This document shows, piece by piece, positions 27,648-31,576 of a DNA stretch of 64,000 nt. The notes beneath the pieces are model-generated. The model did not search any database and was not told the DNA's origin. It worked only from the letters and a program-made list of their open reading frames with translations. The position numbers and the translations under genes are program-made. Source of the DNA: Escherichia coli (lineage in GTDB: Bacteria > Pseudomonadota > Gammaproteobacteria > Enterobacterales > Enterobacteriaceae); assembly GCF_009931435.1 (NCBI RefSeq), contig NZ_CP043414.1; one strand, written 5' to 3'. Within the stretch, counting starts at the first letter, position 1. Each line of letters opens with the position of its first letter.

Positions 27648-28937
27648 TTACGATGTGAAAGAGAGACGAAGCGCCAGCGCGGTAAGCGTCACAAACAGCA
27701 CCGGCAGGGTCATGATAATCCCTGTACGGAAGTAATATCCCCAGCTGATAGTCATATTCTTCTGCGAAAGTACGTGCAGCCAGAGTAGCGTTGCCAGGCT
27801 ACCAATCGGTGTAATTTTCGGCCCCAAATCGCAGCCAATCACGTTGGCATAAACCATCGCTTCTTTTATGACACCAGACGCCGTGCTGCCATCAATGGAC
27901 AACGCGCCAACCAGTACCGTCGGCATATTGTTCATAATAGAAGAGAGGAACGCAGTGAGGAATCCGGTACCGAGCGTCGCGGCCCACAGGCCGTTATCCG
28001 CCAGCACGTTGAGTACGTCAGAAAGATATTCCGTGAGTCCGGCATTGCGCAGGCCGTAAACCACCAGATACATGCCGAGCGAGAAGATGACAATCTGCCA
28101 GGGAGCACCGCGCAGCACTTTACCCGTATTAATCGCATGACCGCGTTTAGCGACGGCAAATAATATCAGCGCGCCTACTGCCGCAATGGCGCTTACCGGA
28201 ATGCCGAGCGGTTCCAGGACGAAAAATCCCACCAGCAGAAGCAGTAAAACAACCCAGCCAGTTTTGAACGTCGCAGGATCTTTAATCGCATCTGCGGGAG
28301 ATTTTAGCAGCGCCATGTCGTAGTTCTGCGGAATATCTTTGCGGAAATAGAGATGCAACATCACCAGGGTAGCCAGTATTGCAGCGATATCCACCGGCAC
28401 CATCACCGAGGCATATTCGCGAAAACCAAGGCCAAAGAAATCTGCTGAAACGATATTCACCAGGTTAGAGACAATAAGCGGCAGGCTGGCGGTATCGGCA
28501 ATGAATCCGGCCGCCATAACAAACGCCAGCGTAGTGCCTTTGCTGAACCCTAAAGCCAGCAGCATGGCGATGACAATCGGCGTCAAAATAAGCGCCGCGC
28601 CATCATTGGCAAACAGGGCCGCAACGGTAGCACCGAGCAGGACAATCCAGGTAAACAGCAAGCGACCGCGCCCATTGCCCCAGCGTGAGACGTGCAGCGC
28701 CGCCCATTCAAAAAAGCCGGACTCATCCAGCAGCAAGCTGATGATAATGACGGCTATAAACGCAGCCGTCGCGTTCCAGACGATATTCCACACCACCGGA
28801 ATATCGCCCGGATGGACCACGCCCGTCATTAATGCCAGTACCGCACCGAGCGTAGCACTCCAGCCGATACCTAAACCTTTCGGCTGCCAGATAACCAATA
28901 CGATGGTCAGGACAAAGATAGCGCCCGCCAGTAACAT
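27648..28937 (-). CDS. arsB: Arsenite/antimonite efflux pump ArsB
   Basis: About 429 aa polytopic membrane protein; start taken at [10 protein letters not shown]. Confidence 0.9.
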
Positions 28938-28991
28938 CATGCCTCCTGGATAAAACACATTCGAATATTCATATGTGTTTAGATAAATTTT

Positions 28992-29345
28992 TTAACTACA
29001 AATATTCTTACTGTCTGCGGAACAATTTTGTCTGGCGAGGTTACGGACAATCACCTGAACCTTTTCCTGTTCGCATCGCCAGGCCTGCTCAATAATTTTC
29101 GCCGCCCATGCTGGAATATGCGGCGATAAACGGTAATGAACCCACTTTCCTTGCTTGCGGTCCAGCAATAGCCCACTTTCACGCAGTAATGCCAGATGGC
29201 GGGAGATCTTGGGCTGCGACTGATCGAGGGCAGTGCAGAGATCGCAGACGCATAACTCACCCAGTTCGCTGAGCAGTAAAACGATGCCCAGACGGGTTTC
29301 ATCGGCAAGAATTTTGAAGAGTTGGATGGGTAACAGAAATGACAT
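28992..29345 (-). CDS. arsR: Arsenical resistance operon repressor ArsR
   Basis: 117 aa with the metal-binding ELCVCDLC motif and winged HTH. Confidence 0.92.
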   Translation of the reverse strand: MSFLLPIQLFKILADETRLGIVLLLSELGELCVCDLCTALDQSQPKISRHLALLRESGLLLDRKQGKWVHYRLSPHIPAWAAKIIEQAWRCEQEKVQVIVRNLARQNCSADSKNICS

Positions 29346-29496
29346 ATTACGCTCCTGATTGTTGCACTTAGTGTCTCTCTTCGAAGCGGATAAGTCAAAA
29401 ACATATATGACTTAACGAATATGTAAGTGTAGAGAAAGGTATAGGTGTGAATTAAGCGTTGGGTGTTCATTTGAAAGGAAGTCTGAATCAGGATGT

Positions 29497-29580
29497 AAAA
29501 AAACCGACTTTGCGTCGGTTTTTTACTCTTCAGCCAGAGTTGGTGGCTCTGGCTGGAGTGAGAATGCCCACATCTAACGG
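29497..29580 (-). ncRNA. agrA: agrA-like small RNA (dinQ-repeat unit 1)
   Basis: First copy of the repeated element ending, on the minus strand, in a hairpin (ccgacgcaaagtcgg) plus U-run; homologous to the dinQ leader. Boundaries and strand rest partly on remembered literature. Confidence 0.45.
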
Positions 29581-29729
29581 TTCAATACTATTAGCCAGTG
29601 GCTAACATTGCAAGCGTTAGCGATTTCTTCAGCTGGCGAAGGGACAGTTTGCTATACATGGTGGTGAAAGAGGATTGATATACTTTCATCGGGTCGCTGC
29701 CGTACCAAGCCTTGTCCGAATCCGGACGT

Positions 29730-29813
29730 AAAAAAACCGACTTCGCGTCGGTTTTTTTACTCTTCAGCCCAGAGTTGGTGGCTCTGGCTGGAGTGAGATA
29801 GCCATCATCTAAC
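29730..29813 (-). ncRNA. agrB: agrB-like antisense small RNA (dinQ-repeat unit 2)
   Basis: Second copy of the same repeat with a terminator hairpin (ccgacgcgaagtcgg) plus U-run on the minus strand. Confidence 0.45.
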
Positions 29814-30086
29814 ACATCAATGCTAATACCATACTGAAACCATTGCAAGGACATGCTGGTTTTATAACCCGCAAGTACTGTATGATTATCCAGTTGGCTC
29901 TGAGGCATTTTCACTCTGGCAATGCGCATAAACGCTTTCAAAGTCCTGATCAGTGGTACGGGTGGTGCCGTTAACTGATGCTCTGGCAGGAGTGAGATTG
30001 CCCACATCTAACAATGAGGCATGCGCCGTGACAGGCAGTGGATGAGTAAGCGGATGCATTCTCACTCCATCGCATGGAGAAAACGG

Positions 30087-30170
30087 GTGATTGATAAAGC
30101 AATCATCGTTCTTGGGGCGTTAATTGCGCTGCTGGAACTGATCCGCTTCCTGCTTCAGCTTCTGAACTGA
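30087..30170 (+). CDS. dinQ: DinQ, small hydrophobic type I toxin peptide
   Basis: 27-codon ORF encoding (V/M)IDKAIIVLGALIALLELIRFLLQLLN, single TM helix, in the arsR-gor intergenic region. Confidence 0.6.
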   Translation: MIDKAIIVLGALIALLELIRFLLQLLN

Positions 30171-30187
30171 TAGCGGAAACGTAACTA

Positions 30188-30220
30188 AGGGCAAAGAGCA
30201 CACCACTCTTTGCCCTTTAA
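30188..30220. terminator. Bidirectional hairpin between dinQ and gor
   Basis: agggcaaagag ... ctctttgccct followed by T-rich sequence; gor converges from the other side. Confidence 0.55.
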
Positions 30221-30223
30221 CAT

Positions 30224-31576
30224 TTAACGCATGGTAACGAACTCTTCTGCCGCCGTTGGGTGAATGGCGACGGTATTGTCGAAGTCTTTTTTGGTTGCGC
30301 CCATCTTCAGCGCCACTGCGAAGCCCTGCAACATTTCGTCCATACCAAAACCAATGCCGTGAATACCGACAATCTTCTCTTCTGGTCCAACGCACACCAG
30401 CTTCATGCGGCACGGCTGGCGGTGCGTGGTGACGGCGGTATACATCGCGGTGAAAGAGGATTTATACACTTTCACCTGATCGTCGCCGTACTGCTCGCGC
30501 GCCTGCGGCTCTGTTAAACCAACAGTACCAATCGGCGGATGACTGAAGACCACGGTCGGAATGTTGCTGTAATCCAGATGCTCATCCGGCTTGTTATTAA
30601 ACAGGCGTTCAGAGAGGCGGCGGCCTGCTGCAACTGCCACCGGTGTCAGTTCCACTGCGCCCGTGTTATCGCCCACCGCGTAAATACCTTCAACGTTGGT
30701 ATTTTGATATTTATCGACGACGATATAGCCTTTTTCGTTAGTTTTAACGCCAGCGGCTTCCAGGTTGATGTTGTCATTGGCAGGTTCGCGACCAATCGCC
30801 CAAATCAGGCAATCCACCGTTTCACTGCGACCATCTTCCAGCTCCAGCGTCAGGCTGCCATCGGCATTTTTCACTACCGCTTTCGGGATGGCGTTGGTGT
30901 GCAACTGCGGACCTTCGGCGTTCATCACTTCGACCAGCGTTTCAGAGAGCATCGGGTCGAAGCTGCGCAGCGGCGCATGTTTACGAACAAACAGATGCGT
31001 TTTCGCGCCGAGGCCGTTAATCACGCCCGCCAGTTCAACGGCAATGTAACCTGCGCCAACAACCGCCACGCGCTCTGGCAAAGCAGGCAGGGCGAAGAAG
31101 CCATCGGAATCAATACCGTATTCCACGCCCGGAATATCCGGGTGGCTCGGGCGACCGCCGGTGGCGATCAGGATATGATCGGCCGTGATGGTTTCGCCGT
31201 TTACTTCAATTGTTTTGGCATCAACGAAGCGGGCAAAGCCTTTGATTACATCAACGTTATTTTTACCGAGCACGTTTTCATAGGAGGTATGAATACGGTC
31301 GATATAGGCGGTACGGCTGGCGATCAACGTTTCCCAGTTGAACTTATTGATGGTGGTATCGAAACCATAATCCGGGCCGTACATGTGGATCGCTTCACGG
31401 ATTTGCGCCGCGTGCCACATCACTTTTTTCGGCACGCAGCCAACATTCACGCAGGTGCCGCCCAGTTCTTTGGCTTCAATCAGCGCGCATTTCTGACCGT
31501 ACATAGCCGCGCGGTTGATGGAGGCGATACCGCCGCTGCCGCCGCCGATGGCGATGTAATCATAGTGTTTAGTCAT
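30224..31576 (-). CDS. gor: Glutathione reductase
   Basis: 450 aa; redox-active disulfide motif [16 protein letters not shown] and NADPH Rossmann motifs. Confidence 0.95.

Follow-up and report, generated by a model that had tools for sequence, protein, structure and literature searches.

We analysed a 64,000 nucleotide (nt) stretch of Escherichia coli DNA (contig NZ_CP043414.1), here called the window, which is reversed in orientation compared with K-12. Our subject is the 878 nt spacer between arsR and gor, the gene for glutathione reductase (positions 29346-30223). This spacer is the known dinQ/agrA/agrB type I toxin-antitoxin locus. Next to the toxin gene and the two antitoxin genes lies a stretch resembling gor. 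We find that it is non-coding and a true relic of gor codons ~362-389, located just outside the right end of the proximal toxin-antitoxin module. The history that we favour, and to which we give even confidence, starts with an old duplication of 786 base pairs (bp) encompassing gor from codon 362 to the stop, dinQ and an agr gene. A deletion of ~550 bp would then have left the relic and agrB.

The locus has been well described. Expression of dinQ is SOS-controlled, via a LexA box, and the product is a 27 amino acid (aa) inner-membrane toxin (PMC3567139, PMC5066626). The agrA and agrB genes encode divergently transcribed small RNAs (sRNAs). The 5' ends of these sRNAs pair with a 33 nt stretch of the dinQ 5' untranslated region (UTR) and so block expression (PMC3567139, PMC5066626). 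Toxicity of DinQ-type proteins, and neutralisation by the sRNA, have been shown experimentally for K-12 (PMC3567139) and for the plasmid dqlB/agrB system (PMC12365149). In the window, the locus was recognised from two matches to the Rfam AgrB family, the DinQ open reading frame (ORF) with its RefSeq annotation, the LexA box, predicted duplex energies and the published descriptions (PMC3567139, PMC5066626). The 27-codon dinQ ORF was present as the original prediction had claimed (30087-30170, plus strand) and is annotated by RefSeq in DNA 100% identical to the window. DinQ homologues carry Pfam PF28061. The spacer is 100% identical to that of E. coli strain 2020CK-00188 and 90.7% identical to that of K-12.

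A relic of gor at the edge of the module

The core of the relic (29653-29705) is 83% identical to gor (30439-30491) over 53 nt, without gaps. The relic is in frame with gor and its translation, YGSDPMKVYQSSFTTMY, aligns to the Gor peptide. The best local alignment of the spacer with gor scored 35. For 300 dinucleotide shuffles the score was 12.8 +/- 1.1, with a maximum of 18 (z = 19.4). A gapped alignment using the K-12 allele extends the gor homology to ..TATACCG..CCGCCAGC. Hence, the relic spans ~29628-29706 and represents gor codons ~362-389 of 450. The parent stretch lies 183-267 nt upstream of the gor stop codon and excludes the gor terminator. The original prediction had described an in-frame stretch, ~80% identical to the 3' end of gor. 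Identity and frame were borne out and the source is in the 3' part of gor. However, the stretch does not derive from the extreme 3' end, or from the terminator, and the matching gor positions are not 30421-30480 as had been proposed. We found no mention of a gor-like relic in PMC3567139, PMC5066626 or elsewhere in the open-access literature searched. Beyond providing a spacer upstream of the agrB promoter, the relic probably has no function.

Two other features overlap the relic. A minus strand ORF of 138 aa (29591-30007) crosses the relic, agrA and the dinQ promoter, and RefSeq calls part of it a hypothetical protein (WP_162754263.1). The ORF has no match in a Pfam search and is almost certainly spurious. 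In addition, 21 nt of the spacer (29627-29647) resemble the end of the dinQ ORF and were considered as a remnant of a second dinQ gene. We rejected this candidate; the gor homology (..CGCCAGC..) explains the likeness and the seed is at chance level.

Of 5426 complete E. coli genomes, 3841 contain the relic with a short flank. It occurs as two deep alleles. A 4 nt deletion marks the common K-12 type and is missing from the rarer type, which is found in the window, in O157:H7 Sakai and in one contig labelled E. fergusonii by its source. The gor bases that survive differ between the two E. coli alleles, and only about one of 56 gor positions is lost from both. This pattern fits the prediction of independent decay from a real gor copy. 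The alleles are ~30% apart (29640-29706 compared with K-12 locus L001). The agrB promoter spacer beside the relic is identical between them, and the whole spacer (29346-30223) is only ~9% apart. Each allele is well conserved internally, even between K-12 and E69, whose gor genes differ by 5%. On these comparisons, the alleles resemble two haplotypes of great age that recombination has moved about.

Escherichia albertii has the same junction as E. coli. The agr terminator is followed by the palindrome GTCC.GATTCGGAC, an 8 nt filler of diverged sequence and then GTACGG. Two pieces of gor come after this junction: nt 1084-1103 and, past a deletion, nt 1323-1353, in which the stop codon is included. 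E. albertii has kept the first nine and the last ten pseudo-gor codons, along with the stop. For each piece, none of 500 shuffles reached the observed score. The layout of junction and relic was the same in all 10 E. albertii genomes examined. Taken together, the E. albertii junction and pieces indicate that the relic was once a longer copy of the gor 3' region, from codon 362 to the stop, and that it is older than the split between E. coli and E. albertii.

The sequence beyond the pseudo-gor stop codon of E. albertii was considered as the native downstream flank of gor. It is instead a phage-related fragment of 1.38 kilobases (kb), 94% identical to P1-like phage-plasmids, that sits at the stop codon (chromosomal locus L004, 5931-7312). 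The fragment consists of a tail-gene end and a higB/higA toxin-antitoxin pair, with a short CGTT..AA microhomology at the joint.

We also compared 80 Enterobacteriaceae gor loci, and the module, that is dinQ with agr, was found without a gor relic in other genera. Carriers of dinQ and agr among the 80 loci were limited to E. coli, E. albertii, Kosakonia sacchari and two Citrobacter genomes. A phosphatase-family gene and lysR flank the Kosakonia module, a clean insertion/deletion of 536 nt. The Citrobacter module (L014 and L016) is likewise a clean insertion/deletion, with the gor stop codon on one side and the convergent gene yhjA on the other. The order in metagenome contig L088 is gor-module-yhjA-treF. 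No second gor piece was found at the module loci of Kosakonia, Citrobacter or L088. In Winslowiella toletana and Serratia fonticola the module is far from gor. Homologous dqlB/agrB modules are known from conjugative plasmids (PMC5066626; the pOXA-48 study, PMC12365149). We find them on many such plasmids, at 65-73% identity across the whole 0.5 kb, and found no gor-like DNA beside them. Whatever the context, the module ends on the right in one and the same palindrome, 't', and the Escherichia relic begins 8 nt later. Hence, the relic is a boundary scar rather than a building block of the module.

These alignments point to a discrete 0.5 kb portable unit, common to chromosomes and conjugative plasmids. 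It does not have the properties of a mobile element with its own machinery; dinQ is its sole ORF. Inspection of the Kosakonia and Citrobacter insertion/deletion sites revealed neither target-site duplications nor terminal inverted repeats. Separately, no copy of the module was found in the phage collection searched. One further candidate, a pseudo-gor after the agr terminator of Citrobacter youngae, was discarded. Comparison with module-less Citrobacter shows that the stretch is the 3' end of convergent yhjA.

Proposed histories: duplication and deletion, or insertion at gor

In the history that we favour, the ancestor would have had the arrangement gor-[dinQ+agr]-yhjA, which is still present in Citrobacter and L088. 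Before E. coli and E. albertii separated, a tandem duplication of 786 bp, running from gor codon 362 through the stop codon, dinQ and agr, would have produced gor-dinQ-agrA-[pseudo-gor 362-450]-dinQ2-agrB. In the E. coli line, a single deletion of ~550 bp, beginning at about pseudo-gor codon 390 and stopping short of the agr -35 box, would then have removed the remainder of pseudo-gor and the second toxin gene. The outcome would be a relic beside an extra, promoter-bearing, antitoxin gene, agrB. This form is also seen in one contig labelled E. fergusonii by its source. In E. albertii, the first nine and last ten pseudo-gor codons would have been kept and the rest lost to the P1-like higBA fragment.

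Several observations bear on this history. First, the gor-to-relic spacing, 786 nt, equals the interval between gor codon 362 and the module's right end. This match, and the presence of a second agr distal to the relic, are as a tandem duplication predicts. Second, outgroups with gor-module-yhjA and no relic (Citrobacter L014 and L016, and L088) represent the ancestral state. Third, the second agr recurs at a period of 235 nt compared with 786 nt for the gor piece; a single fixed period would need the deletion of ~550 bp. Rearranged loci in natural genomes (see below), which show that the repeats recombine, also speak in favour of this history. The original prediction had also invoked duplication. 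It was right to the extent that duplication with part of the gor 3' region best explains the relic and the two agr genes. However, the module itself was not built from gor or its terminator.

Several points weigh against duplication followed by deletion. None of 5418 E. coli genomes, 29 metagenome loci and 10 E. albertii genomes proved to be an intermediate, in which a full pseudo-gor would be followed by dinQ2. The 5418 E. coli genomes had been checked for a longer second gor copy. Contigs labelled E. fergusonii by their source gave no intermediate either, and no remnant of a second dinQ was found. The module end, judged from other genera, and the right end of the duplicated segment lie within 8 nt of each other. 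Only a few percent of random duplications would end there, and the 8 nt filler has no explanation. Furthermore, agrA is no closer to agrB than it is to the agr of Citrobacter. Hence, either the duplication is old or agrB is possibly foreign. Tandem multiplication of agr on plasmids, without gor DNA, means that agrB need not stem from duplication of a whole unit. Finally, the P1-like replacement after the E. albertii pseudo-stop has erased evidence that would separate duplication in situ from insertion.

The strongest rival is a horizontal insertion anchored in gor, which we consider possible if rather unlikely. Here, a fragment or circle comprising gor from codon 362 to the stop, dinQ and agr, from a donor in which gor-dinQ-agr already existed, would have recombined into an Escherichia ancestor without the module. 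The native gor 3' end would have been displaced, and decayed to the relic, with agrB arising later and separately. Such an architecture exists at gor in Phytobacter ursingii (L027). Moreover, the module is discrete and is found in several unrelated contexts and on plasmids, and thus moves horizontally. Third codon position identity to the Citrobacter youngae group is also higher in the 3' part of gor (0.69-0.76) than in the 5' part (0.62), a difference that is within noise. Conversely, extra events are needed to put agrB just distal to the relic. The relatives with gor-module-yhjA and no relic (Citrobacter and L088) would either have lost the relic or have received a clean insertion independently at the same spot. 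In addition, the gor similarity profile has no significant break at codon 362. We had considered a foreign gor 3' end and rejected it, as profiles of 5' and 3' similarity over 58 species contained no significant break. The profiles do not separate duplication from insertion.

A second alternative is that the relic came in with the islands downstream. Inserted between the module and yhjA, the ars/acid-fitness-island DNA would have had the gor 3' end of its donor at its edge. In Escherichia, the DNA between the module and yhjA-treF is indeed all island, absent from Citrobacter and L088, and the relic is at the boundary of module and island. However, agrB lies between the relic and ars in E. coli, and is left unexplained. 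The junction of module and relic is also common to E. coli and E. albertii despite different distal DNA (ars and P1-like, respectively). We therefore consider an island origin very unlikely.

The idea in the original prediction, that the gor 3' end and terminator gave rise to the module itself through repeated duplication, is extremely improbable. It draws on one gor-like piece, and the presence of repeats, in the spacer and on nothing more. The rest of the spacer shows no gor likeness and the relic is outside the module. The agr terminators (AAAAAAACCGAC..GTCGGTTTTTTT) have no sequence similarity to the gor/dinQ terminator (30187-30217; AAGGGCAAAGAG..CTCTTTGCCCTT). The module also occurs without gor-like DNA in Citrobacter, Kosakonia, Serratia, Winslowiella and plasmids and so does not derive from gor. 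A chance match, for which the shortness of the stretch (53-80 nt) might speak, has practically no likelihood given the shuffle scores (35 observed, maximum 18; z = 19.4), the colinear and in-frame alignment with gor, the independent decay of the alleles and the second colinear piece, with its stop codon, in E. albertii.

Organisation and rearrangement of the antitoxin genes

The features of the locus, and the flanking genes, are listed in Table 1.

Table 1. Coordinates of features in and around the arsR-gor spacer of the window
Feature	Position	Strand	Basis or remark
arsB	27648-28958	minus	ORF list
arsR coding sequence, left flank of spacer	28992-29345	minus	ORF list; ArsR annotation in 100%-identical RefSeq DNA
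agrB unit (distal antitoxin copy)	29481-29614	minus	82% over 136 nt to 29714-29849, E = 2e-31; also contains a stem-loop
End palindrome 't' of agrB unit	29481-29494		part of agrB unit
Bidirectional terminator of agrB unit	29495-29524		part of agrB unit
agrB sRNA gene	29495-29577	minus	Rfam RF02891 AgrB, 90.0 bits, full-length
33 nt 'agrAB repeat' core, agrB copy	29546-29578		part of agrB unit; 2 mismatches to dinQ copy
agrB -10 element (predicted)	29586-29591	minus	read from sequence; layout as in PMC3567139
agrB -35 element TTGCAA (predicted)	29608-29613	minus	read from sequence; layout as in PMC3567139
Pseudo-gor relic (G'), decayed copy of gor codons ~362-389	29628-29706	minus	oriented like gor; core 29653-29705
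8 nt filler CAAGCCTT between module right end and G'	29706-29713		alignments; homologous to neither side
agrA unit (proximal antitoxin copy)	29714-29849	minus	paralogue of agrB unit; predicted -35 TTGCAA 29843-29848
agrA sRNA gene	29728-29812	minus	Rfam RF02891 AgrB, 90.7 bits, full-length
33 nt core, agrA copy	29781-29813		4 mismatches to dinQ copy
LexA box of dinQ promoter (predicted), CTGTATGATTATCCAG	29878-29893	plus	CTG-N10-CAG pattern match; position agrees with PMC3567139
33 nt core in dinQ 5' UTR, antisense RNA target	29980-30012	plus	repeat search; 94% to agrB copy
dinQ ORF, GTG start, 27 codons + stop, VIDKAIIVLGALIALLELIRFLLQLLN	30087-30170	plus	sequence, ORF list, RefSeq WP_001295215.1
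Bidirectional terminator common to dinQ (plus) and gor (minus), also module left end	30187-30217	both	terminator scan, 14-pair stem; ends from Kosakonia/Citrobacter comparisons
gor (glutathione reductase), intact, 450 codons	30224-31576	minus	ORF list; annotated gorA; C-terminal part matches Pfam Pyr_redox_dim
Parent segment of relic in gor, codons ~362-389	30415-30492	minus	repeat search + alignment; 786 nt from relic

Both AgrB-family matches exceed the gathering score of Rfam RF02891, which is 40. They are on the strand opposite dinQ and do not overlap the toxin gene. Within them are the near-identical minus strand terminator hairpins that the original prediction had noticed (agrB, 29495-29524; agrA, 29728-29760). 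The claim of three tandem units of 230-250 bp did not survive. Homology extends over 136 nt between the two agr units, at 82% identity, and the supposed dinQ unit shares the 33 nt core alone. Tandem Repeats Finder reported no array in the spacer. Thus, self-alignment yields significant repeats (the two agr units and the 33 nt core) and the gor-like segment, but not an array of three. E. albertii has a single agr, to which the agrA unit is 94% identical. The filler between module and relic differs from that of the window in both K-12 and E. albertii. The palindrome TTGCAA at 29843-29848 apparently provides the -35 element of two divergent promoters, those of agrA (minus strand) and dinQ (plus strand). 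A further copy of this hexamer (29608-29613) heads agrB.

Predicted duplex energies with the dinQ 5' UTR were -66.4 kcal/mol for agrB and -55.8 kcal/mol for agrA. Hence, agrB is the better predicted antisense partner of dinQ in this strain, because its core has only two mismatches to the dinQ copy. The 33 nt core contains a variable part of 15 nt, with at least four types in E. coli. We compared the cores of the window and of loci L001, L004, L010, L014 and L101-L105. In K-12-type loci, the dinQ variable core fits the distal agr, at the agrB position, with 0 mismatches compared with 5; in the window the numbers are 1 and 3. Conversely, the dinQ variable core fits the proximal agr, at the agrA position, in E69 and L101-L103 (1 mismatch compared with 5) and in L104 and L105 (1 compared with 4). 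The description of agrA as degenerate may be confined to K-12-like haplotypes, and the 33 nt cores look as if they have been shuffled by gene conversion. In Kosakonia sacchari (L044, 6080-6615), a change to GTTAGTCAGAGACAGTTC is seen in the dinQ target as well as in the agr core. The toxin mRNA and the antitoxin RNA thus covary across genera.

Copy number of the antitoxin gene also varies on plasmids. The Salmonella IncFII plasmid NZ_CP022492.1 (L085, 1484-2712) has two dqlB genes. Two tandem AgrB-family RNA genes precede the first and three precede the second, at a spacing of 115-175 nt. Such multiplication of antitoxin genes is recurrent in the family.

The repeats of the locus demonstrably recombine in natural genomes. 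In genomes of the SJ7 type, agrA and agrB are fused into one hybrid agr and the relic is lost. Other rearrangements were noted at the locus. In a collapsed form, an agr core and the dinQ core are fused, and the agr terminator and stem are joined straight to the dinQ core. Both promoters (agr and dinQ) and the LexA box are deleted, leaving an intact dinQ ORF that is apparently promoterless. Carriers are uropathogenic E. coli (UPEC) 26-1 (L003), the sequence type 131 (ST131) matches H26-H29 and metagenome contig L088 (2893-3000). The collapse in L088 is apparently independent of that in B2/ST131-type E. coli. At L141 (3836-5132; GCA_910593955.1), a 426 nt unit, consisting of the dinQ promoter, agrA, the gor relic, the agrB promoter and a core, is duplicated. 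This gives five cores and two relics, with the crossover lying between the cores of agrB and dinQ. The assembly contains frameshifts and the arrangement could be an assembly artefact. Finally, Phytobacter ursingii (L027, 5151-6939) has an intact gor, 1.38 kb of cargo and then a second gor 3' end of 205 nt that is 98% identical. The distal copy keeps the native downstream flank, as in P. diazotrophicus. It is a further case of inserted cargo duplicating the 3' end of gor. The cargo holds an ORF of 324 aa that we take to be fimbrial-like.

Known systems and the meaning of the scar

A repeat of 31-34 nt, the 'agrAB repeat' of dinQ, agrA and agrB, has been described, and the sRNAs were said to be 'presumably' tandemly duplicated (Weel-Sneve et al., 2013, PMC3567139; Kristiansen et al., 2016, PMC5066626). 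Hence, both the tandem duplication of agrA and agrB, and the repeat shared with dinQ, had already been stated by Weel-Sneve et al. (2013). The window resembles the K-12 locus in its arsR-gor site, gene order, LexA box, 27 aa DinQ, two AgrB RNAs and repeat of ~33 nt. It differs in that the haplotype is divergent (90.7% identity over the spacer), with a different variable core that still fits agrB best. The relic is also better preserved in the window than in K-12, where it has the 4 nt deletion. The plasmid dqlB/agrB addiction modules, for example that of pOXA-48 (PMC12365149), share a homologous toxin, a divergent trans-acting antisense RNA and Rfam AgrB matches. Unlike the window, these modules are plasmid-borne and have no gor-like DNA, and some carry two or three tandem agr copies 115-175 nt apart.

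Insertions that restore their target gene leave displaced 3' end fragments, such as the icd 3' pseudo-fragment beside prophage e14. The gor locus is similar in having an intact gene, cargo and a decaying direct-repeat copy of the 3' region. In contrast to icd/e14, there is no integrase or attachment (att) site, the cargo is only 0.5 kb and the relic may be a duplication copy rather than the displaced original. Among chromosomal type I loci, ldr/rdl (the LDR repeats), sib/ibs and zor/orz have undergone local duplication, with copies diverging in antisense specificity. The dinQ locus differs from these in that it has lost the second toxin and keeps an extra antitoxin gene and a fragment of a housekeeping gene.

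A broader interpretation is that dinQ with agr is a selfish 0.5 kb unit. It might spread among the chromosomes and plasmids of enterobacteria by recombination anchored in neighbouring genes, such as gor, and leave scars made of gene fragments. The deep E. coli haplotypes, in which the dinQ core fits the distal agr in some cases and the proximal agr in others, would be specificity types maintained by selection, similar to plasmid incompatibility groups. We regard this wider proposal as doubtful. If true, the view of agrA as a degenerate, non-functional copy would be valid only for K-12-like strains.

The dinQ/agr locus and its repeats were already known, and as textbook type I toxin-antitoxin material they make the observation that opened this analysis add little. 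The gor relic alone seems to be unreported in the open-access literature searched. It calls for some caution in annotation, since some RefSeq records place a spurious 'hypothetical protein' across it, and it is a handy neutral marker for tracing the two old haplotypes of the locus. Our analysis also corrects the idea of a system built from gor; the module is portable and common to conjugative plasmids. As a scar that can be dated to before E. coli and E. albertii diverged, the relic offers a modest evolutionary insight. It suggests a route to an extra antitoxin, in which a whole toxin-antitoxin unit was duplicated together with part of a housekeeping gene and the second toxin was then lost.

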